Below are positions 1-9,616 of a DNA stretch of 9,616 nucleotides, one piece after another. Under the pieces are notes generated by a model. That model ran no database searches. It worked only from the letters and a program-made list of their open reading frames with translations, and was not told the DNA's origin. Source of the DNA: a virus (Duplodnaviria > Heunggongvirae > Uroviricota > Caudoviricetes); the IMG/VR virus record IMGVR_UViG_2778261570_000015; one strand, given 5' to 3'. A program made the translations under genes and the position numbers. Position 1 is the first letter of the stretch. Each line of letters opens with the position of its first letter.

Positions 1-294
<294 letters not shown>

Positions 295-600
295 CCGTCC
301 AGAAGAAGATATTTTCACTGGCTGGTATGTCGCCAAAATCCAGCAATATGACAGCAAAGTCTGGCATTAATACAGCAGATACAAGCAAAGTTTATCATTT
401 TCTGGTGGTAGGAGCGGATGCCTTAACTATGTCAGAAATTACGGTCGATGGTGTTAGCGTTGAGAAGGTCGGCGGCTGCGCCAGAGAATTTCTGGTCGTA
501 GATGGCTTTCTCTGCTCGCGTAGTGACTCCACAAAAACCTTCGTCCACACGCGCGACGTTAACGAAATGAGCGCGATGTATTGTGCATCTGGTGCTTCCA

Positions 601-628
601 ATAGTGAGTTTTCGGAGTCCATAAAAAA
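601..628 (+). repeat. Direct repeat copy 1 (AGTTTT-NN-GAGTCCATAAAAAA); partner at 6481-6504
   Basis: 14-nt exact match GAGTCCATAAAAAA at 615-628 and 6491-6504, extended to 20/22 identity by AGTTTT at 607-612 and 6483-6488. Confidence 0.6.
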
Positions 629-725
629 GAGCTTGCCGTTATGCGGCAACACGGTTTATGGTTATAAGGCACCTCATAAAACGGGTGCCGGGTTTCGCAG
701 CCCGGAAATGTACGAGGCGACACAT

Positions 726-747
726 GACGCGCCGAGCGTCTTTTTTT
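726..747 (+). terminator. Weak intrinsic terminator candidate (5-bp GC-rich stem, 5-nt loop, T7 tract)
   Basis: GACGC (726-730) pairs with GCGTC (736-740), followed by TTTTTTT (741-747). Short stem, so marginal. Confidence 0.35.
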
Positions 748-754
748 GTGCCGT

Positions 755-800
755 TAGCCAGACTCACACTTTTTTCAGTGATGCGGTTATAATCCGCGTC
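755..800 (+). promoter_or_regulatory. Sigma70-type promoter candidate for the primase operon; -10 TATAAT at 788-793 flanked by a GCGG/CCGC inverted repeat
   Basis: Perfect TATAAT hexamer at 788-793; the -35 region is poor (CACACT-like). GCGG (783-786) and CCGC (794-797) embrace the -10, an operator-like arrangement. First SD-bearing start codon downstream is at 950. Confidence 0.35.
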
Positions 801-949
801 GCTTGCAAAATTATGGTGGGCTGGACAGGGCAGCCGAAAGGCTGGCCGGTTTCCTTGTACGCCGGTACTGCGAACTCTGTTCAGTCCACCACCAGCGAGT
901 TTCGCAGCTCCGGTGGTGGGAAGAATTCCCAGTACAAGGAGGCTGCCAC

Positions 950-1144
950 ATGCTGGCTACTACCCCTACCCAAAAACCGCAATTTATCTGGATTATCGCC
1001 GCAGTTCGCCGCGATTGCCCGACAATTACCGCCAAAATTCATCATATTGCTGCCGAGTCTGAACGCGATGCTCGCCGTTCTCTGGTGCGCGATCACATCT
1101 GCTTTTTTGCTGGTCGTATCCGCATGGAGGTGGCACATGATTAA
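950..1144 (+). CDS. Hypothetical small protein, 64 aa (first gene of primase operon)
   Basis: ATG 950 preceded by AAGGAGG (936-942, spacing 7). Codons in this frame are enterobacterial-preferred (CGC/CGT, CTG, ACC, ATC); the alternative long frame here has CTA/TTA/AGG/ATA and about 6% Trp. Stop overlaps the next start. Confidence 0.55.
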   Translation: MLATTPTQKPQFIWIIAAVRRDCPTITAKIHHIAAESERDARRSLVRDHICFFAGRIRMEVAHD

Positions 1145-1355
1145 AACCTACGATGTGCATATGGATCCCCTCGAACGCACAAGCCAGATCATCACACTGA
1201 CAGAAGTGATTAACGACATTCTGGTGAGCAACTCTCCCTCACGAGACGAAAGACTGAAGGCGTTACTCGCGATATTGGATCTCGCCGTTCGTGACGTTCA
1301 TTTCCTGCTGGAAGGTGGACAAATGCCATGCAAAACGGGGGCAACCAATGAATAA
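1137..1355 (+). CDS. Hypothetical small protein, 72 aa
   Basis: ATG 1137 preceded by GGAGG (1126-1130); overlaps the previous stop (ATGATTAA). Same frame as the 288-1355 track ORF, of which it is probably the only real part. Confidence 0.55.
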   Translation: MIKTYDVHMDPLERTSQIITLTEVINDILVSNSPSRDERLKALLAILDLAVRDVHFLLEGGQMPCKTGATNE

Positions 1356-1542
1356 CTCAATTAATACCCCTCGCCTTACGTCCGCACTTCAATTAATCGA
1401 GCAAGCAGCGGCTGTCCTGGTTGCTGTCAGTCTTTCGGCTGAAGAAATGGACGCTGCTGATGTCGTGGATGCGATTAAAGCGTGCTCATCTTTGGTTAAC
1501 GATGCCCGTGCCGAGCTGGTAATTCTTGGGGGTGAAAAATGA
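1348..1542 (+). CDS. Hypothetical small protein, 64 aa (MNNSINTPRL...)
   Basis: ATG 1348 overlaps the previous stop at 1353-1355; GGGGG at 1336-1340 serves as SD. The track ORF 1291-1542 starts from an earlier in-frame ATG without an SD. Confidence 0.5.
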   Translation: MNNSINTPRLTSALQLIEQAAAVLVAVSLSAEEMDAADVVDAIKACSSLVNDARAELVILGGEK

Positions 1543-1802
1543 ATATCAACTTAATTTATCGTCATCCGTGTGAGCTGGAAATTGAATCATTGCTGGGGCG
1601 CGAAGAGCCATATCCAGACACATTCACTCCCGCAGATTGCGCGACTGAACGGCTTACCAGAGCGCGCACAGGTCTGGTTCATGTGATGAATGAGATTGTT
1701 CCCTCGGTGGGAGGGGAACAGGCGACAGTAATCAATAGCTGGCTACAAAAAGTTACCTCCCTGATAGATATCGGTTTAATCGATGTGGAGAGTGCGAAAT
1801 GA
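1539..1802 (+). CDS. Hypothetical small protein, 87 aa
   Basis: ATG 1539 overlaps the previous stop (ATGA); GGGGGTG upstream. Track ORF. Confidence 0.6.
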   Translation: MNINLIYRHPCELEIESLLGREEPYPDTFTPADCATERLTRARTGLVHVMNEIVPSVGGEQATVINSWLQKVTSLIDIGLIDVESAK

Positions 1803-2020
1803 CCAACATCCAGCTCATTGAAGCGCAATGTCGCATCGAACAGGTTCAGACTGTTTTAGGGTTCTGGCTTGAAGGGGCCAGCCCCAGCAACAGAGACAAG
1901 TTAATGATTGGCGCGGTTATGTCACTGCTCAATGGCGTACCAGAAGCTATTCAGGAAGCGGACGAATTGTTGGGCAAATATGAGTTACAGAATCATTCAG
2001 GCGAGGCGAAACATGAATAA
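1799..2020 (+). CDS. Hypothetical small protein, 73 aa
   Basis: ATG 1799 overlaps the previous stop (ATGA); GGAGAG upstream. Track ORF. Confidence 0.6.
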   Translation: MTNIQLIEAQCRIEQVQTVLGFWLEGASPSNRDKLMIGAVMSLLNGVPEAIQEADELLGKYELQNHSGEAKHE

Positions 2021-2615
2021 TTTCTTAACTTTCCATGCAGAAGCAACGCCTGACGGCGTAAACATCATGTACCGCAGCAACGATGGCATGACAGAACGCG
2101 TTGAGACCGTCTCATATATTGATGCCGTAAATCGTCTGGATGCCGGGGATTATGACGATAAACCAGATGAAGGCATGTTTATACATCTCGCTATTGCCAG
2201 TGGCGGCAACCAGGGATATTTCGATTACACATCACAGCATCACGTGATTATGTGGCGCTGGCTGATAGCAACAGCATTCATGCTGGAAATGAGAGAGGAA
2301 AACGGCACTGTCAGCATCATTGATGATACTGGCAATCCTTCCGAAGTGGCTGTTTATTCCAACGACATCGTCGCCATGCCGCTGTATCCAGTAGCAGAGC
2401 GCCTCGCTATGGCAAACAACATTGAGGGCGCGATGATAGAACGTTTTGGCATCGAGTCTGGCACAGAACGCGCCATCATTTTCTACAGAGCCATGATGGA
2501 TGTGGAACAAGGAGCACTGACTCCATTTGGTCGTGAAACGCTTGCTGAACTTCACAACAGCTTTATAGCTGAACTGAATGAAAACGGCATGCCAGCGGAA
2601 CCAGTGACGCACTGA
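2013..2615 (+). CDS. Hypothetical protein, 200 aa (MNNFLTFHAE...)
   Basis: ATG 2013 overlaps the previous stop at 2018-2020 with GAGG upstream. The track ORF 1908-2615 begins at an earlier ATG inside the preceding gene; the coupled start at 2013 is more plausible. Confidence 0.6.
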   Translation: MNNFLTFHAEATPDGVNIMYRSNDGMTERVETVSYIDAVNRLDAGDYDDKPDEGMFIHLAIASGGNQGYFDYTSQHHVIMWRWLIATAFMLEMREENGTVSIIDDTGNPSEVAVYSNDIVAMPLYPVAERLAMANNIEGAMIERFGIESGTERAIIFYRAMMDVEQGALTPFGRETLAELHNSFIAELNENGMPAEPVTH

Positions 2616-2625
2616 GGATGGAGCC

Positions 2626-2967
2626 ATGATTACTAAAAATTTCCGACTGAATGCGCTGGCAAATAAGTATGCGTCAGCACTGTATAACCACATTACCTCC
2701 ACCAGCGGCGGGGACTATTTCATGATTGATGCGGACGGAGAGGCCGTCCGTGTGGAAATCGTCAATGGAGTAAAAGGCGTTCGCAGCCTGATCGATAGTT
2801 ACGCACTGGCAGCCATGAAAGTGTTCTACCCGCAGTGGGAAACCGTGGGGATCGAGCTTCTTGATCGTTGCGTCACTAAGGACAGATTGACTGACGTCGG
2901 GCGTGAGATATGGCAAAGCATGGTTAATGACATGGGCGCAACTGTAGCGGGAGGTTCTCATGCGTGA
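2626..2967 (+). CDS. Hypothetical protein, 113 aa
   Basis: ATG 2626 with GAGGATGGAG upstream; 10-nt gap after the previous stop. Track ORF. Confidence 0.65.
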   Translation: MITKNFRLNALANKYASALYNHITSTSGGDYFMIDADGEAVRVEIVNGVKGVRSLIDSYALAAMKVFYPQWETVGIELLDRCVTKDRLTDVGREIWQSMVNDMGATVAGGSHA

Positions 2968-3331
2968 AAATGTAGAAATGGCGCTTAGCTCCGCAATCGG
3001 AGAGCAGGTGGCAAAGATTGCTGGTGCTGTGTGGATTCATAACCTTCATTCTACTGGTGAAGAGAAAATGGCAATTCAGACGCCAGAGGGACGCACCATT
3101 ACTACATCTCTGAAGCCGTCAGATGTTTGTGATCTGATTTGCGCATTCATGTACCCAGCAATGAGGACTGTCCACGGCGATAAGTGGAAACTTGCGACAA
3201 CCGCTGAATTTGATATGTGGCTAAACAATGATGGCATGCTGACTGATTACGGAATAACCAAGTGGCAGATGCTAGTTAGCCATATCGCAAACGCTATAGA
3301 CCACGTGGGGTACGGTGATGCGAAACATTGA
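2960..3331 (+). CDS. Hypothetical protein, 123 aa
   Basis: ATG 2960 overlaps the previous stop; GGGAGG upstream. Track ORF. Its 3' end overlaps the primase start by 14 nt. Confidence 0.65.
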   Translation: MRENVEMALSSAIGEQVAKIAGAVWIHNLHSTGEEKMAIQTPEGRTITTSLKPSDVCDLICAFMYPAMRTVHGDKWKLATTAEFDMWLNNDGMLTDYGITKWQMLVSHIANAIDHVGYGDAKH

Positions 3332-6074
3332 TCTTATCCGTCAGGTTATCAGTGCGTCTGAAAACAACTGGCCTCATGTGCTGGGCTGCCTGAACATAAA
3401 TGTCCCTGACTCTCCGCGCCGTCATGCTCCCTGCCCTGCATGTGGGGGCAAAGATCGATTCCGGTTCGATGACAACGGGCGCGGTAGCTTCATCTGTAAT
3501 CAGTGCGGCGCTGGTGATGGGCTGGATTTAATTAAACGCGTAAATAACTGCGACACAACAGAGGCGGCGCTTCTTGCCGCTGATGTTCTGGGTATTGATT
3601 ACCGGACAACGGAAACACCAGAAGCCACCAGCCAGAAACGGGAACAACTGGAAACCGAGCGCCAGCGACGCGAACAGGAGCGCCTGAAAAGGGCAGAGAA
3701 GGACGAACAACAAAGACGGGATACGTTTTCCCGTCAGTTTGATGACATGCGCAGAAAGGCTGTAAACGGCAAATCTGATTATCTGGTTGCGAAAGGGGTA
3801 GGTGATTTTACATTCCCCGTGTTGCCCGATGGATCTCTGTTGCTGGCGCTGGTGGATAAATCCGGCGCAGTAACAGCAGCACAGACTATTACCTCACATG
3901 GTGAAAAAAGACTCCTGACAGGTTCAGCAAAGCGAGGGGCATATCACGCCATAAACGCACCAGAAACAACACAGAGCATCTTAATCGCAGAAGGGCTGGC
4001 AACGGCATTATCTGCCCATTTAATGCGTCCAGAGGCGCTGACAGTGGCGGCGATTGATGCCGGGAACCTGTTATATGTCGCCCAGGTACTGCGGGATAAA
4101 TTTCCTTCAGCACAAATCATCATTGCTGCGGATAACGACCACAGCGAAGGAAGACAAAACACGGGGAGAATAGCAGCAGAAAAAGCAGCTTTATCTGTTT
4201 CTGGATGGGTGGCATTACCCCCGACAGATCACAAAGCAGACTGGAATGATTACCACCAAAAACACGGTATTAAATGCGCCACAGAAGCGTTCAATAAGTC
4301 AATGTACCAACCACAGGGTAATGGCGTGAAACAGGAGCCACAGACCATTGAGGGAAGCGATTTTAAGGTTATGGATACCGATCCACTGAAACCAAGAATA
4401 GAAAGCCGCGAGGATGGTATTTATTGGGTATCTCCGAGAGCTGACAGCCAGAGTGGAGAAATCATCAATAACGAAAGCTGGTTATGTTCTCCGTTAAGCG
4501 TTATCGGTACTGGCAGAGACGATAAAGACCAGTATCTCATTCTTCGCTGGCTGTCGTTTGGTTCTGAAACGCCGACAACCGCTGCCATTCCACTGGCTGA
4601 TATTGGTGAACGTGAAGGATGGCGCACACTTAAAGCTGGTGGGGTAAATGTCACGACCAAAAGCAGCCTCAGAGCAATACTGGCAGACTGGCTACAACGC
4701 AGTGGCTCTCGTGAATTGTGGCGTGTTGCTCATGCCACTGGCTGGCAATGCGGAGCGTACATCATGCCTGATGGGGAAATCATCGGAACACCTGAAAATC
4801 CTGTGCTGTTCAGCGGGAGAAGCTCAGCCGCAGCCGGATATACCGTCTCAGGGAGCGCGAAAAGCTGGCGTGATAACGTGGCGCGTCTGGCCTTTGGTAA
4901 CTATTCAATGATGACCGGGATCGGCGCAGCACTGGCAGCGCCATTGATTGGGCTGGTGGGCGCTGACGGGTTCGGCATTCATTTCTATGAGCAGTCGAGC
5001 GCAGGTAAGACCACCACGGCAAACGTGGCGAGCAGCTTATACGGCAACCCTGATTTACTGCGGCTGACGTGGTACGGAACCGCGCTGGGGCTGGCAAATG
5101 AGGCCGCCGCCCACAATGACGGACTAATGCCGCTTGATGAAGTTGGTCAGGGCGCTGATCCTGTCAGCGTTTCACAGTCTGCCTATGCGTTATTTAACGG
5201 TGTAGGGAAACTGCAAGGCGCTAAAGATGGTGGAAACCGGGATCTAAAACGCTGGCGTACAGTGGCAATCAGCACCGGAGAAATGGATTTAGAAACATTT
5301 ATCGCTACTTCCGGGCGAAAAACCAAAGCCGGGCAACTGGTGCGACTGCTGAATATTCCGTTGAGTAAAGCAGTACGCTTTCACGATTACCAGAACGGAA
5401 AACAGCACGCAGACGCACTGAAAGACGCTTACCAGCATCACCACGGCGCGTCCGGGCGTGAGTGGATTAAATGGCTGGCAGACCACCAGCAACAGGCTAT
5501 TAAAACCGTTCGTGACTGCGAAAGCAGATGGAGAAGCCTGATCCCATCCGATTATGGTGAGCAGGTTCACCGTGTAGCCGCGCGATTTGCCATTCTGGAG
5601 GCCGCATTGTTGTTAGGCGAGGTTGTAACAGGCTGGGATGCTCAGACATGCCGTGATGCGATACAGCACAGCTATAACGCATGGTTGCGCGAGTTCGGCA
5701 CAGGTAACAAAGAGCATCAGCAGATTATTGAACAAACGGAGGCATTTCTTAATGCCTATGGGCTTAGCCGTTTTGCACCATTTCCATACAGCCCGGCAGA
5801 TTTGCCCATCAAAGATTTAGCCGGATACCGTCAGCGTGGAGAACATGACGAAAGCCCAATGATTTTCTACACATTCCCGGCCACATTTGAAAAGGAGATC
5901 GCATGTGGTTTCAACGCAAAACAGTTTGCTGAAGTGTTGAAAAAAGCCGGGATGCTAACCCCACCAAACAGCGGTCGTGGATACCAAAGAAAATCACCAC
6001 GTATTCAGGGACGACAAATAAACGTTTATGTACTCAATTACCAGCCAGGAGATTATAACTCATCTGAAGAATGA
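3318..6074 (+). CDS. DNA primase-helicase (replication initiator), about 918 aa: N-terminal zinc ribbon, TOPRIM primase core, P-loop NTPase domain (phage P4 alpha-like / DUF927-like architecture)
   Basis: Zinc ribbon CPACGGKDRFRFDD...CNQCG (about 3420-3524). TOPRIM signatures IAEG and AADNDHSEGR (about 3972-4244). Walker A-like SSAGKTT and Walker B-like LMPLDEVGQ (about 4980-5150). Start ATG 3318 (GGGG at 3307-3310); the track's GTG 3315 is too close to the SD. Confidence 0.9.
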   Translation: MRNIDLIRQVISASENNWPHVLGCLNINVPDSPRRHAPCPACGGKDRFRFDDNGRGSFICNQCGAGDGLDLIKRVNNCDTTEAALLAADVLGIDYRTTETPEATSQKREQLETERQRREQERLKRAEKDEQQRRDTFSRQFDDMRRKAVNGKSDYLVAKGVGDFTFPVLPDGSLLLALVDKSGAVTAAQTITSHGEKRLLTGSAKRGAYHAINAPETTQSILIAEGLATALSAHLMRPEALTVAAIDAGNLLYVAQVLRDKFPSAQIIIAADNDHSEGRQNTGRIAAEKAALSVSGWVALPPTDHKADWNDYHQKHGIKCATEAFNKSMYQPQGNGVKQEPQTIEGSDFKVMDTDPLKPRIESREDGIYWVSPRADSQSGEIINNESWLCSPLSVIGTGRDDKDQYLILRWLSFGSETPTTAAIPLADIGEREGWRTLKAGGVNVTTKSSLRAILADWLQRSGSRELWRVAHATGWQCGAYIMPDGEIIGTPENPVLFSGRSSAAAGYTVSGSAKSWRDNVARLAFGNYSMMTGIGAALAAPLIGLVGADGFGIHFYEQSSAGKTTTANVASSLYGNPDLLRLTWYGTALGLANEAAAHNDGLMPLDEVGQGADPVSVSQSAYALFNGVGKLQGAKDGGNRDLKRWRTVAISTGEMDLETFIATSGRKTKAGQLVRLLNIPLSKAVRFHDYQNGKQHADALKDAYQHHHGASGREWIKWLADHQQQAIKTVRDCESRWRSLIPSDYGEQVHRVAARFAILEAALLLGEVVTGWDAQTCRDAIQHSYNAWLREFGTGNKEHQQIIEQTEAFLNAYGLSRFAPFPYSPADLPIKDLAGYRQRGEHDESPMIFYTFPATFEKEIACGFNAKQFAEVLKKAGMLTPPNSGRGYQRKSPRIQGRQINVYVLNYQPGDYNSSEE

Positions 6075-6097
6075 GCTTCTTCATGTGCGTAGAAAAG

Positions 6098-6126
6098 GTG
6101 TTGGTTCAGTTGGTTCAGTTGGTTCA
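6098..6126 (+). repeat. Three tandem direct iterons GTTGGTTCA (first copy extended to GTGTTGGTTCA)
   Basis: Copies at 6098-6108, 6109-6117 and 6118-6126, read directly from the sequence. Confidence 0.7.
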
Positions 6127-6168
6127 ATTTGTAAAGAGTATTGTTTTATAAGGATTTTATTCTTTTTA

Positions 6169-6212
6169 TTGAACCAACACTGAACCAACAACACGGTATT
6201 TTGAACCAACAC
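6169..6212 (+). repeat. Three inverted-orientation iterons TGAACCAAC(AC), reverse complement of the upstream iterons
   Basis: Copies at 6169-6180, 6180-6191 and 6201-6212; centre spacing about 11 and 20-21 bp, roughly one and two helical turns. Confidence 0.7.
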
Positions 6213-6260
6213 AATGTGACTGAATTGATGCGCACAACACCTGGCTGGCATCAGAGAGTG

Positions 6261-6281
6261 TTTTACGAGACTTTCGTAAAA
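6261..6281 (+). promoter_or_regulatory. Palindromic operator-like site O1: TTTTACGA-N5-TCGTAAAA (core TACGA-N5-TCGTA)
   Basis: 8-bp perfect inverted arms at 6261-6268 and 6274-6281. Confidence 0.45.
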
Positions 6282-6318
6282 TCCTGTGTACAAGGGCGTG
6301 ACGTTTTTGAAAGTGAGC

Positions 6319-6337
6319 ACTACGAAATTTTCGTAGT
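6319..6337 (+). promoter_or_regulatory. Palindromic operator-like site O2: ACTACGAAA-T-TTTCGTAGT (core TACGA-N5-TCGTA)
   Basis: 9-bp perfect inverted arms at 6319-6327 and 6329-6337; same core and spacing as O1, 57 bp downstream. Confidence 0.45.
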
Positions 6338-6480
6338 TCAGAAAACAGCCTCTGAGAAGTTGTTATGCCTGTTCAGCAAACCATCCGCATAGCTGATCGC
6401 GAATCAAATTACCAATGGAGCCAGAAGCAAGGGCAGAACTGAAAAGCGCCTGCCGTGAAGAGTAATGCGACACCATAAAT

Positions 6481-6504
6481 ATAGTTTTTAGAGTCCATAA
6501 AAAA
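6481..6504 (+). repeat. Direct repeat copy 2 (AGTTTT-NN-GAGTCCATAAAAAA)
   Basis: See copy 1; lies 27 bp upstream of the 6531-6564 terminator. Confidence 0.6.
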
Positions 6505-6530
6505 CCTGTCAAAACCTGACACACAGAACG

Positions 6531-6564
6531 ATGCCACCAGCTACTGAGCGGTGGCATTTTTTTG
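6531..6564 (+). terminator. Rho-independent terminator, + strand
   Basis: ATGCCACC (6531-6538) pairs with GGTGGCAT (6550-6557), 11-nt loop, then TTTTTTT (6558-6564). No T-tract on the opposite strand, so unidirectional. Confidence 0.65.
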
Positions 6565-6584
6565 TGCTATTTGTTTCATATTTT

Positions 6585-6632
6585 GCAATTACGATGATGA
6601 ATATTGCGATTTGTGAAACTATAATAACTGTT
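6585..6632 (+). promoter_or_regulatory. Promoter candidate for the downstream operon; -10 TATAAT at 6620-6625
   Basis: Perfect TATAAT 34 bp upstream of the SD of the 6659 ORF; weak -35 (ATGAAT, 17-bp spacer); AT-rich upstream region. Confidence 0.4.
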
Positions 6633-6658
6633 GTTTTATACAGTTCTAAGGGGGCGTT

Positions 6659-6820
6659 ATGGCTATTTCAGTAAAGCCGGTATTGATAAGTGAGAAGCAA
6701 ATGGAAGCGATAAAGAAAATTCAGGAAGAGCAGCGTAAAAAATCAGGAATTGGAGTAGCGCCAACTCTGCATGAAATTGCACGAGGGTTAATAGATAAGG
6801 CGCTGGCAGGCTGTATGTGA
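6659..6820 (+). CDS. Small 53-aa protein, possible ribbon-helix-helix (CopG/Arc/MetJ-like) DNA-binding regulator; absent from the ORF track
   Basis: ATG 6659 preceded by AAGGGGG (6648-6654); stop TGA 6818-6820. Translation MAISVKPVLISEKQMEAIKKIQEEQRKKSGIGVAPTLHEIARGLIDKALAGCM has a short N-terminal beta-strand-like segment followed by two predicted helices. Next gene starts 16 nt downstream. Confidence 0.5.
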   Translation: MAISVKPVLISEKQMEAIKKIQEEQRKKSGIGVAPTLHEIARGLIDKALAGCM

Positions 6821-6836
6821 AAATGGATGGCATCGC

Positions 6837-7298
6837 ATGGAACTAAAATTTATTGATAACCCTGTGCGATTACAGGCCTTTCTTAACGAGCCAGGCAATA
6901 CCGAAAATATTGTTGAGCCGGGGCACACGTACTACATCAAGCCTGATGCGGTATATCTCGGCATCTACGAAGGATTAGTGCTGGCTGGCGTTCATGAAGT
7001 GCGTAACTTCTGGCATAGCGTTGTTGAATGCCATGCGGTGTACGACCCCGGATTCCGTGGTGAATATGCACTGCAAGGACATCGATTATTCTGCAAATGG
7101 CTTCTCGAAAACTCACCATTCCTTAACAGCATCACTATGGTTCCTGACACCACGAAATACGGACGGGCAATTATCCGTTTGCTTGGCGCTACCCGTGTTG
7201 GTCACCTTGATGATGCTTATATCAGATGTGGTAAACCCGTCGGCGTAACGCTTTATCAGTTAACTCGGCAACAATATAAGGAATTCAGCGAATGTTAA
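6837..7298 (+). CDS. Hypothetical protein, 153 aa
   Basis: Track ORF; ATG 6837 with GGATGG upstream; stop overlaps the next start. No family recognised. Confidence 0.7.
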   Translation: MELKFIDNPVRLQAFLNEPGNTENIVEPGHTYYIKPDAVYLGIYEGLVLAGVHEVRNFWHSVVECHAVYDPGFRGEYALQGHRLFCKWLLENSPFLNSITMVPDTTKYGRAIIRLLGATRVGHLDDAYIRCGKPVGVTLYQLTRQQYKEFSEC

Positions 7299-7969
7299 TT
7301 ACCCATATAGCTCATAAACATCTCAATCGTGCCGTATACGAAAAAGGCGGTGATGGTGGTGCCTCTAAAGCTCAGGCGAAGGCCCAGCAGCAGGCAATTG
7401 ATTTGCAGCGCGAGCAGTGGAATACGGTGATGAATAATCTCAAGCCGTATGCAGAAGTCGGATTGCCTGCTTTACAACAACTACAAGGACTGATGACTCT
7501 GGAAGGGCAGAATAAAGCCGCGAATGATTTCTTTGGTTCTGGTTTATATAAAACACAGGCAGATCAGGCCCGTTATCAGAACCTTGTCTCAGCAGAAGCT
7601 ACCGGGGGGCTTGGCTCAACAGCTACCAGTAACCAGTTATCTTCCATTGCGCCCATGCTTTATAACAATTGGCTTAGTGGGCAAATGCAAAATTATGGAA
7701 ACCTGCTAAATGTCGGGATGAATGCGGCATCAGGGCAGGCAACGGCAGGGCAAAACTACGCCAATAATACCGGACAACTCTTGCAGGGGCTTGGCGCTAT
7801 TCGTGCAGGTCAGGCGCAGCAGCCATCCAGTCTTGCGCGTGGTATTGGTGGGGCAGCATCAGGCGCTTTAGCGGGTGCGCAACTTGGTTCCGTTGTTCCT
7901 GGAATAGGAACTGCGGCCGGCGCTATTGGTGGTGGGCTTATTGGTCTTGTTGGGGGGCTTGGATTCTAA
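7292..7969 (+). CDS. Ala/Gln/Gly-rich protein, 225 aa, with a glycine-zipper hydrophobic C-terminus; putative internal-virion/ejection-type protein
   Basis: Track ORF; start overlaps the previous stop; AAGGAA upstream. Low-complexity AQ-rich N-terminal part; C-terminus GIGTAAGAIGGGLIGLVGGLGF. Composition resembles podovirus internal core proteins; not verified by homology. Confidence 0.65.
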   Translation: MLITHIAHKHLNRAVYEKGGDGGASKAQAKAQQQAIDLQREQWNTVMNNLKPYAEVGLPALQQLQGLMTLEGQNKAANDFFGSGLYKTQADQARYQNLVSAEATGGLGSTATSNQLSSIAPMLYNNWLSGQMQNYGNLLNVGMNAASGQATAGQNYANNTGQLLQGLGAIRAGQAQQPSSLARGIGGAASGALAGAQLGSVVPGIGTAAGAIGGGLIGLVGGLGF

Positions 7970-9288
7970 TGGCGACATGGCAACTTGGCGGGCTGCCTAG
8001 CATGGCACCGCAAAATGATAATGCTCCTCGTTCTTCCGTTCCTCAGCCTGTGCAGTATCAGCAGCAGCCAAACGTAGGTTTAATGGCGCTACAGGGGCTA
8101 AGAGGCGTTGCTGAGATTAATCAGCAGGCGCAAATTTCCCAGCAGCTAAAAGAATATCAGGCACGGTTGGGTAGTGCGGTAGCTAATAATGATCGTGTTG
8201 GCGTGCAGAAGTTAATGGCCCAGTATCCCCAGTTTATGGCTGATTCTCAAAAACAGATGGGATTCATTGATGCTGAGCAAAATCGGCAGACCGCTGACGC
8301 TGCCATGAATCTGCGTCTTGCGTCACAAACTGGAGATCCACTGACCATGCAGAAGGCCATTCAGCAGGCAAATCCAGTATTACAGCGATTTGGTCTTCCT
8401 GCTGAAGAGGTTTATCAGTCTTGGCAGAATGACCCACAGGAATTCAACAGAATCACTGACCTCATCCACCTCCATGCTGATCCAAATAGTTACTTTAGTG
8501 TTCAAGAGAAGCAGCAAGGGCAGAGTATTGCACAGCAGAACGCAGATACATCTGCATATAATGCTCAGGTTAATGCGGAGCAGGGTAATCGGCGGCTCGA
8601 TATGGAGCAGTTCAAAGTCCTATCCGATAACCAACTACGCACGAGAGAAATGGTTCTGAAAGCACGACTTGGACGTGCTCAAAATGACATCGAGAGAGAC
8701 AAGCTCAATGCTGAACTGAGCAAGGTACAGCAGGCGAAAGTGGAGAAGATGAACGATAAAATTAATACTGTTGCAGGTAATATCGACTCCTTGAACTCTG
8801 CGCTTGAAGTGGGTCATGAACTGGCGGGAATTGTAGGGAAACATCCTTCGGCCGTTACCCGTTCGCAGAACTATAACCCCCTGACGCTGGGGTTTGGATT
8901 CCTCCCTGATGTAGCAGAAGACACACGAAGCCTACGCGCCAAAGCTGATGAATACAACCTAAAGGTTATTCTGCCTAGCCTAAAAGGTACTTTTGGCTCT
9001 AACCCAACCGAAGGGGAAAGGGCTGCCCTTATGCAATCTCAAAATGGCATTAAGTCAGCAACCAGCAATGAGGCATTTTTGCGAGAGTTGAATAAAGCGC
9101 AGGACGTAATTATTCGAATGCAGAAACGACAGATTGCCGGGCTCGGTATTCCTGTAACCAAATCTAAGGACGAAGAAACTGATACCAAAATGCTGTTGCA
9201 GGATCCTTCACTGGTTAAGGATTATGTGACCGCACATGGCTATCTGCCGGAAAGTTACTATCAGGCAAAACTTAAGGGATGGCAATGA
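7969..9288 (+). CDS. Gln/Ala-rich protein, 439 aa; putative internal-virion/ejection-type protein
   Basis: Track ORF; TAATG overlap with the previous gene and TGA overlap with the next. Q/A-rich, coiled-coil-like composition. Confidence 0.7.
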   Translation: MATWQLGGLPSMAPQNDNAPRSSVPQPVQYQQQPNVGLMALQGLRGVAEINQQAQISQQLKEYQARLGSAVANNDRVGVQKLMAQYPQFMADSQKQMGFIDAEQNRQTADAAMNLRLASQTGDPLTMQKAIQQANPVLQRFGLPAEEVYQSWQNDPQEFNRITDLIHLHADPNSYFSVQEKQQGQSIAQQNADTSAYNAQVNAEQGNRRLDMEQFKVLSDNQLRTREMVLKARLGRAQNDIERDKLNAELSKVQQAKVEKMNDKINTVAGNIDSLNSALEVGHELAGIVGKHPSAVTRSQNYNPLTLGFGFLPDVAEDTRSLRAKADEYNLKVILPSLKGTFGSNPTEGERAALMQSQNGIKSATSNEAFLRELNKAQDVIIRMQKRQIAGLGIPVTKSKDEETDTKMLLQDPSLVKDYVTAHGYLPESYYQAKLKGWQ

Positions 9289-9616
9289 TGGCACAACTGA
9301 CAGAAAAACAGAAAGCCTATTCCCGTCATCTCGATGAAAAATATGGTTTCCCATCAGGGACGATGGAAACATTAGTTGGCAATGAATCTAGTGGTAACGG
9401 AAGTGCCGAGTCACCGAAAGGAGCTAGAGGATTTGCTCAACTGATGCCCTCAGTAATGAGTGATGCTGGTTATCGTGGAACAGATCCGCGCTCACTGCCA
9501 TTTGAAAAGCAAATGGATATCGCAGCAAACCATCTCAATAAAGGAATGAAGCGATTTGGTGTGAACCGCCCCGGGTTTCCTGGAGAGTGTTTTATCTGTG
9601 AACTCAGGCTGCCAGA
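9285..9616 (+). CDS. Lytic transglycosylase (SLT) domain protein, N-terminal fragment; gene continues beyond the window
   Basis: ATG 9285 with AAGGGATGG upstream, overlapping the previous stop. Translation contains GNESSGNGSAESPKGARGFAQLMP, matching the SLT catalytic signature (ES...A.S..GA.G..Q), at the same N-terminal position as in T7 gp16-type internal virion protein D. Open to the end of the window. Confidence 0.7.
   Translation, partial: MMAQLTEKQKAYSRHLDEKYGFPSGTMETLVGNESSGNGSAESPKGARGFAQLMPSVMSDAGYRGTDPRSLPFEKQMDIAANHLNKGMKRFGVNRPGFPGECFICELRLP

Follow-up and report, generated by a model that had tools for sequence, protein, structure and literature searches.

What kind of gene opens with a lytic transglycosylase motif at the very end of a viral contig, and in what kind of element does it reside? 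The question is raised by IMG/VR virus record IMGVR_UViG_2778261570_000015 (Caudoviricetes), a stretch of 9,616 nucleotides that was analysed as a whole and is referred to below as the window. A first-pass annotation of this DNA had likened the start of its last open reading frame (ORF), from position 9285, to the N-terminal SLT (lytic transglycosylase) domain of T7 gp16, and had proposed a large injected protein cut off by the edge of the window. The best explanation, which very probably holds, is that positions 9285-9561 are the 5′ end, truncated by an insertion sequence (IS), of the last gene in a four-gene P22-type ejection cassette carried by an island of the EcCIMP1 family. The structural and genomic identification is held with high confidence, and a role of the protein in delivering satellite DNA is put forward tentatively, by analogy. 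Virion-borne lytic transglycosylases on ejected proteins are familiar from T7 gp16, and P22 gp16 is a classic ejection protein. The part itself is familiar; the novelty lies in its being joined to a P22-type body and, most of all, in its being conserved in a satellite.

The native part of the gene, here called SLT::gp16, occupies 9285..9561 on the plus strand (92 codons from the ATG at 9285, or 91 from the ATG at 9288), and its translation, MMAQLTEKQKAYSRHLDEKYGFPSGTMETLVGNESSGNGSAESPKGARGFAQLMPSVMSDAGY, is just the one quoted in the first-pass annotation. Its start overlaps the stop codon of the preceding gp20-type gene (ATGATGG), which points to an operon. The 109-aa fragment found in the window matches the Pfam SLT family (PF01464, curated cutoff 21.3 bits) with 34.1 bits and E=2.1e-8, residues 14-92 aligning with positions 5-85 of the 117 in the profile, and the intact 906-aa allele does so over residues 15-117 (48 bits, E=1.1e-12); the motif is real and far beyond chance. 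The fragment keeps SLT motif I (E34-S35) and motif II (G-F-A-Q-L-M-P), and is without motif III (A-x-Y-N-x-G, present as A-L-A-G-Y-N-S-G at residues 97-104 of the intact protein) and without the whole gp16 body. Across 10 to 16 divergent homologues no variation is seen at E34, S35, S36, G49, Q52, M54, P55, Y101 and G104. All native residues of the window gene (92/92) agree with the 906-aa proteins of Escherichia coli DLI.6n and EcCIMP1. In an AlphaFold (AF2) model the N-terminal SLT domain, residues 1 to ~145, reaches a predicted local distance difference test (pLDDT) score of 84-91, and all top Foldseek matches in the PDB are lytic transglycosylases; their E-values are only ~1e-2, reflecting the fact that more than half of the full-length model is of low confidence, and they are used as fold support only. 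The N-terminal domain is accordingly classed, from profile and model, as a family-1 lytic transglycosylase (SLT) with a predicted lysozyme-like alpha-helical fold, and by analogy it would be expected to be muralytic.

What follows the domain is visible in uninterrupted alleles, which are 906 aa long; the identical-protein cluster of this sequence (P0001) has 621 members, and the full-length protein of DLI.6n is 99.7% identical to that of EcCIMP1. In the intact allele, residues 187-862 match PHROG 770, 'DNA transfer protein', at E=5e-120, and a precomputed Pfam assignment gives the body to PF26808 (Phage_P22_gp16); the local copy of Pfam returned no family for this region. Against P22 gp16 itself, BLASTP finds 46% identity over 76 aa (E=1e-16, block 235-310 on P22 73-137), and hhalign extends the match to family residues 207-582 on P22 45-390 with 99.9% probability and E=5e-31. 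All matches to the gp16 body concern the intact allele, as the window fragment contains none of that region. By these comparisons the intact gene encodes an SLT lytic transglycosylase domain fused to a P22 gp16-type ejection-protein body. The N-terminus is hydrophilic (mean Kyte-Doolittle hydropathy -1.06 over the first 25 residues), with neither signal peptide nor lipobox, and a single Gly-rich hydrophobic segment lies near the C-terminus at residues 798-821. The first-pass annotation had favoured a large injected protein over an endolysin and had named as tests a profile search for SLT and the full length of the product, which above roughly 600 aa would favour an ejection protein and under ~250 aa, with a signal peptide, would point elsewhere. 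On every one of these points it is borne out: the SLT match exceeds the Pfam cutoff, the protein has 906 aa, a P22 gp16 body and no signal peptide, and its gene stands directly behind homologues of P22 genes 14, 7 and 20.

These neighbours complete a cassette in which the gene order (gp14-gp7-gp20-gp16) is that of P22 genes 14-7-20-16, and the same order is common to Escherichia phage Dewey, phage Kapi1 and Serratia prophages. Its first gene, at 6837..7298 on the plus strand, encodes a P22 gene 14 homologue of 153 aa (DUF2824; Pfam PF11039, E=1.5e-61; PHROG 651). It is followed on the same strand by a P22 gp7-type ejection gene at 7292..7969 (225 aa; Pfam PF25688 P22_gp7, E=6.6e-73; PHROG 598), whose product has a Gly-rich hydrophobic C-terminus (segment 198-225), and by a P22 gp20-type ejection gene at 7969..9288 (439 aa; Pfam PF16928 Inj_translocase, E=3.7e-22; PHROG 917/2534). 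P22 gp20 forms a periplasmic conduit. The gp16 of P22 (609 aa, PF26808) sits in the same slot after genes 14, 7 and 20 and has a homologous body, but it lacks the SLT domain: some 230 N-terminal residues of the satellite protein (SLT plus linker) stand in place of the first ~70 of P22, and overall identity is low outside the conserved block. A tape-measure reading of the gene was dropped in view of its architecture and context.

Kinship with T7 gp16 was the more specific suggestion, and its N-terminal half stands. The N-terminus of T7 gp16 as read from NC_001604 (AWTESRFVPTAKSKTGPLGMMQF; LLRKVAWTESRFVPTAKSKTGPLGMMQFTKATAKALGL) agrees with the pattern given for it in the first-pass annotation, and hhalign places family residues 19-66 on T7 gp16 22-69 without a gap (E=1.9e-5), E34-S35 falling on T7 E37-S38 and Q52 on T7 Q55, so that the position-for-position correspondence holds. 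The domain also lies at a near-equal N-terminal offset in both proteins (18-130 on T7 22-144 in hhalign; 11-130 on T7 16-145, E=6.9e-11, when the family profile of the N-terminal domain is searched against the PDB, entries 7eyb/7k5c), PHROG 342, the T7 gp16 family, is matched at E=2.8e-16, and T7 gp16 chains rank first and third in Foldseek (7eyb_I, 3.2 A over 125 columns). Nevertheless, the gene is very improbable as a member of the T7 gp16 family, that is, as a T7-type internal core protein, since the likeness ends at residue ~130, beyond which the body follows P22 gp16, and the genes upstream are P22 gp14, gp7 and gp20 homologues and not of the T7 gp14/gp15 types; family membership was rejected on these two grounds. 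In pairwise BLASTP against T7 gp16, neither the window fragment nor the full-length protein gave anything significant (the correct register scored 12-17 bits, E>4), and close T7 homology was therefore dropped and profile-level SLT similarity alone retained. Even that similarity is one shared by SLT domains in general, given that Slt, Slt70 and MltC, all cellular enzymes, outscore T7 gp16 with the same profile (E=2.6e-14 to 5.5e-13), and the Foldseek lead of T7 gp16 over MltD and Slt is negligible, all of them being in effect level. Solved relatives were reached only through the N-terminal-domain family profile; a phmmer search of the PDB with the full-length protein yielded no match at E<=0.01. 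Of the parallel drawn with T7 gp16 (internal virion protein D, 1318 aa; PDB 7K5C, 7EYB), the shared SLT module therefore stands, and the family does not. The functional idea would be shared, namely an ejected protein with its own peptidoglycan cutter; T7 gp16, however, belongs to an ordered core stack that P22-like phages lack (PMC8954989). That the cellular enzymes are the best sequence and profile matches of the SLT domain taken alone, and that the ORF of the window would end after ~144 codons, could instead suggest a short secreted lytic transglycosylase, be it an endolysin, a VirB1-type protein or a housekeeping enzyme. This is more improbable still, for the shortness is due to an IS while intact alleles are of full length, the export signals are missing, and the domain is fused to a gp16 body inside an ejection cassette, near which neither holin nor spanin genes occur; length, architecture and gene context led to its rejection.

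The IS that shortens the gene is an IS629-like element of the IS3 family, whose terminal inverted repeat and end (TGAACCGCCCCGGG) occupy 9562..9616 on the minus strand and match IS629/IS3-family ends in Stx phages at 98-100%; by megablast, the last ~57 bases of the window match such ends. Alignment to DLI.6n (locus L001) and to strain M15 (L002) shows that the native gene stops at 9561 (AAGCGATTTGGTG) and that the terminal repeat TGAACCGCCCCGGGTTTCC begins at 9562. The IS end of the window is identical at 54/55 positions to the 1310-bp IS of M15. That element has its transposase on the minus strand, and the transposase of the window copy would likewise lie on this strand, past the window end. 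The last 18 residues of the ORF (tail VNRPGFPGECFICELRLP) are thus encoded by the IS and not by the native gene, and when the junction is rebuilt with the M15 element the ORF ends at codon 144. Since the insertion takes out motif III and everything downstream, the window copy is, as read from its sequence, a pseudogene that would be unable to make the large protein. The gene had been described as truncated by the window edge; truncated it is, but by the IS at 9562 and not by the edge alone.

The exact junction of gene and IS seen in the window was not found in 5,426 complete E. coli genomes; among them, M15 alone covers both halves of the junction, its IS lying 77 bp further downstream. The SLT::gp16 gene of M15 (L002 11486-16957) carries an IS3-family element together with an IS4, and in another island (L022 11317-15350) an IS3-family element in mid-gene leaves pieces of 415 and 505 aa. 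Counting the window, the gene has been disrupted at least 3 independent times. The opposite end of the window is also an IS end: positions 1..54 (strand not assigned) belong to IS100 (IS21 family), inserted in the antA/antB antirepressor gene of the island, with island homology beginning at 55. These positions match thousands of loci, and in strain E1433 they adjoin IS100 istA/istB. The window is a contig with IS repeats at both ends, and the second insertion, in the antirepressor gene, indicates that this island copy is decaying. The exact gp20 protein occurs in 1,984 blocks of an assembly collection, and in 620 of these the longest contig carrying it measures 5-10 kb, the size class of the window; one or more heavily sequenced lineages may carry IS-fragmented island copies. 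For annotation, the lesson is that the tail of an ORF at a contig end can be IS sequence.

The element that houses the cassette is identified, from its gene content and colinearity, as a phage-inducible chromosomal island (PICI) of E. coli of the EcCIMP1 family, and not as a phage. Window positions 55-9561 are colinear with, and 98.7% identical to, EcCIMP1 of E. coli MP1, the encoded proteins being 98.0% (gp14), 98.7% (gp7) and 99.5% (gp20) identical, and EcCIMP1 with its 906-aa coding sequence (CDS; WP_000968283.1) is essentially the same element and gene. The differences are the IS insertions of the window copy, in SLT::gp16 and in antA/antB, and the state of the Ash gene. The latter is an intact ORF in the window (288-1355, 355 aa), as in several other islands, whereas for MP1 and strain CRE1540 RefSeq lists Ash as a pseudogene, truncated, with an Icd-like gene behind it. 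EcCIMP1 is inserted at tRNA-Thr/proA, and for close copies such as that of CRE1540, which shares 98.1% identity with the window, the flanking genes are yicC and dinD. The window itself covers the segment from antA to gp16 only; bounded copies, of which that of CRE1540 is an example, are ~20 kb long. They contain a tyrosine integrase, an AlpA-type helix-turn-helix (HTH) protein, AntA/B, DUF4222, Ash and Icd-like genes, small ORFs, a Toprim-DUF927 primase and the cassette; behind it come a conserved ORF of 232 aa, an accessory region that varies, and PerC. Genes for capsid, portal, terminase or tail were not found in the bounded islands (the intact copies of CRE1540 and MP1 and ten further places).

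EcCIMP1 was shown by experiment to be excised, circularised and transduced only upon induction of the P22-like temperate phage Kapi1 (PMC11773190). In that paper, the only one on satellites with ejection proteins that turned up in the literature, the words 'ejection' and 'transglycosylase' do not appear, and the CDSs are not named as a P22 ejection cassette. Compared with the helper Kapi1, the satellite proteins are 84% (gp14, against Kapi1_055), 58% (gp7), 26% (gp20) and 24% (gp16, in its C-terminal part only) identical, which leaves gp7, gp20 and gp16 at 24-58%; gp20 is 28% identical to that of P22. None of gp7, gp20 and gp16 of Kapi1 or P22 contains an SLT domain. The sole nucleotide-level similarity to Kapi1 lies at window positions 6837-7426, with 81% identity over gp14 and the first ~130 nucleotides of gp7, which suggests from the sequence that gp7 contains a mosaic junction and that gp14 has been kept in line with the helper.

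The fusion is not confined to satellites. SLT::P22-gp16 fusions are common: phage Dewey and Serratia P22-like prophages carry them, and they occur in sequences from E. coli, Citrobacter and Leclercia. The Dewey protein (875 aa) is 46% identical across residues 19-901, with an SLT match at E=2.8e-25, and those of the Serratia prophages (825-874 aa) carry the Pfam pair SLT and Phage_P22_gp16. Contrary to a 2022 review, such fusions are thus encoded, on sequence grounds, in true P22-like phages and prophages. The Dewey and Serratia genes are part of complete phage genomes, which include terminase, portal, coat and tailspike genes, whereas the gene of the window sits in a satellite without virion genes. 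Many homologues in E. coli and Salmonella are ~703-722 aa long, are called 'DNA transfer protein' and have no SLT domain. RefSeq already labels the intact protein 'lytic transglycosylase domain-containing protein', and the architecture is labelled in Pfam too.

In satellites, purifying selection on the cassette is strong. The E. coli and Citrobacter islands share ~80% DNA identity over the region corresponding to window positions 6550-9561, and between them the Nei-Gojobori ratios of nonsynonymous to synonymous divergence (dN/dS) are 0.064 for gp14, 0.040 for gp7, 0.055 for gp20 and 0.076 for SLT::gp16 (0.044 for the SLT segment alone), values that are approximate as dS is ~1 or higher and near saturation. 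The 906-aa gene is intact in 9/10 sampled places. The cassette remains constant, while the islands differ in integration site (at least 3), in the type of primase (DUF927 or DUF5906) and in their accessory region.

How might such a cassette be used? In P22, ~12 copies of gp7, 12 of gp16 and 30 of gp20 enter at procapsid assembly, with the scaffolding protein required, and these ejection (E-) proteins leave the virion before the DNA to build a trans-envelope conduit (PMC4992974; PMC10883804). Foreign sets of gp7/20/16 can substitute for those of P22, provided that gp16 and gp20 are a cognate pair, and the same two proteins are the targets of SieA exclusion (PMC10883804). In T7, the N-terminal transglycosylase of gp16 is required where cross-linking of the peptidoglycan is high (PMC8954989), and its E37 matters in stationary or low-temperature recipients. 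On the model of P22 and T7, the satellite would make its ejection proteins while the helper grows lytically, once Kapi1 or another P22-like helper has been induced, and these proteins would be loaded into helper procapsids; at the next infection they would be expelled ahead of the DNA, the SLT domain would cut glycan strands locally so that the gp7/gp20/gp16 conduit could cross the peptidoglycan, and the gp16 body would engage the inner membrane. Both packaging into virions and a part in satellite transfer are presumed here by analogy. We infer, as a proposal to be entertained more than relied upon, that EcCIMP1-type satellites bring their own complete ejection apparatus (gp14, gp7, gp20 and SLT::gp16), preserved by selection, with which they would alter particle entry via hijacked capsids.

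Several points weigh against this proposal. The ejection proteins of the helper function without any SLT domain, so that peptidoglycan cleavage is not obligatory for P22-type ejection; the EcCIMP1 authors proposed a packaging role for these CDSs; and Kapi1 transduces EcCIMP1 very inefficiently (PMC11773190), which makes the benefit of the cassette uncertain. The portion of the gene beyond the IS lies outside the window. The AF2 model is of low confidence over residues 150-513 and 759-821, and its C-terminal part is mostly helical. The region that joins the SLT domain (~130 aa) to the gp16 body is probably flexible, judging from the model, which is at least compatible with the picture of ejection proteins as a 'conformational gymnast' (PMC8954989). 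The repeated IS insertions in the gp16 gene, at no fewer than three independent sites (window, M15 and L022), together with the poor transduction and the fact that cassette genes of this kind are typical of prophages, could be taken to mean that the cassette is just an inert remnant that a degraded P22-like prophage has left behind, stranded beside a P4/PICI-type replication module and playing no role in the life cycle of the island. Such a relic is nonetheless improbable. The layout of integrase, AlpA, AntA, Ash, primase, cassette and PerC is met with repeatedly, at no fewer than three sites in the chromosome, in E. coli as well as in Citrobacter and with two primase types, no other remnants of P22 structural genes accompany the cassette in the islands examined, and a dN/dS of 0.04-0.08 at the divergence given above would be unexpected for relic DNA; the constancy of the cassette, these low ratios and the high share of intact copies together argue against an inert remnant.

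Selection could, on the other hand, maintain the proteins mainly as a weapon against phage, with DNA delivery secondary: a non-cognate gp16 or gp20 might poison helper virions, or the proteins might add to superinfection immunity. P22 virions with non-cognate gp16 or gp20 do assemble and yet are non-infectious (PMC10883804), the satellite versions of these two proteins are only 24-26% identical to those of Kapi1, and EcCIMP1 adds superinfection immunity against Kapi1 although no known defence system was found in it (PMC11773190). That EcCIMP1 does not restrict Kapi1 induction or lytic replication (PMC11773190) counts against virion poisoning, the satellite proteins carry no export signal that would bring them into contact with an incoming ejectosome, and conservation of the complete cognate set, gp14 included, suits a working machine better than a decoy. 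A chiefly antiphage function is therefore considered unlikely, and the cassette continues to be read, tentatively, as an ejection apparatus of the satellite itself.

Further features of the window concern the replication and regulation of the island. The gene at 3315..6074 (plus strand) encodes a primase-helicase of 919 aa with Zn-ribbon, Toprim and DUF927 domains (Pfam PF08273, PF13362 and PF06048; RefSeq annotation), the satellite replication gene, by which the element is placed as a PICI/P4-type island. Directly after its stop codon, an iteron-like array at 6098-6212 consists of three copies of GTTGGTTCA with a 9-bp period, an AT-rich spacer and three copies of TGAACCAAC in inverse orientation. 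In intact islands the array segment (~121 bp) has an inverted copy of 78-80% identity ~8-9 kb downstream, beside perC (L005 28472-28581; L001 20505-20614; Citrobacter L009 15218-15328). The paired arrays resemble the ori/crr pair of P4, and by this analogy the array at 6098-6212 is a candidate origin of satellite replication. Between these repeats and the cassette, a terminator-like hairpin followed by a T-run lies on the plus strand at 6522-6566, and a small ORF of 53 aa (6659..6820, plus strand; WP_001018524.1) precedes the cassette in all islands examined, a 53-aa gene being likewise placed in the Citrobacter islands. A scan for sigma-70 promoters upstream of the cassette (6000-6900) gave 0 sites where 2.4 were expected.

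Among the islands, the same cassette is accompanied by one of two primases, either Toprim-DUF927 (918 aa) or Toprim-DUF5906 (783 aa) with two extra ORFs (compare L015, L022 and L023 4602-6955 with L014 5350-8106), which indicates that replication modules are exchanged between islands. The region between the 232-aa ORF and perC varies as well, holding ImmA/IrrE (Peptidase_M78), Abi_2 or other genes (L005 26055-28600; L016 and L021 15780-16757; L009 17744-18742), and looks like an accessory or defence hotspot.

The SLT::P22-gp16 fusions support a modular, mosaic view of ejection proteins, and the best-conserved E. coli home of the fusion is a satellite whose published description overlooked the ejectosome character of the cassette. 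Other PICIs carry capsid-redirection or packaging genes downstream of the primase, and the present cassette gives a testable idea for the genes that 'type C' PICIs have in this position. If its products are indeed loaded into hijacked P22-like capsids, the satellite would change how the particle enters cells, which could aid in crossing highly cross-linked peptidoglycan or in evading SieA-type exclusion. Satellite piracy would then bear on how DNA is delivered, and not on capsid size or packaging.

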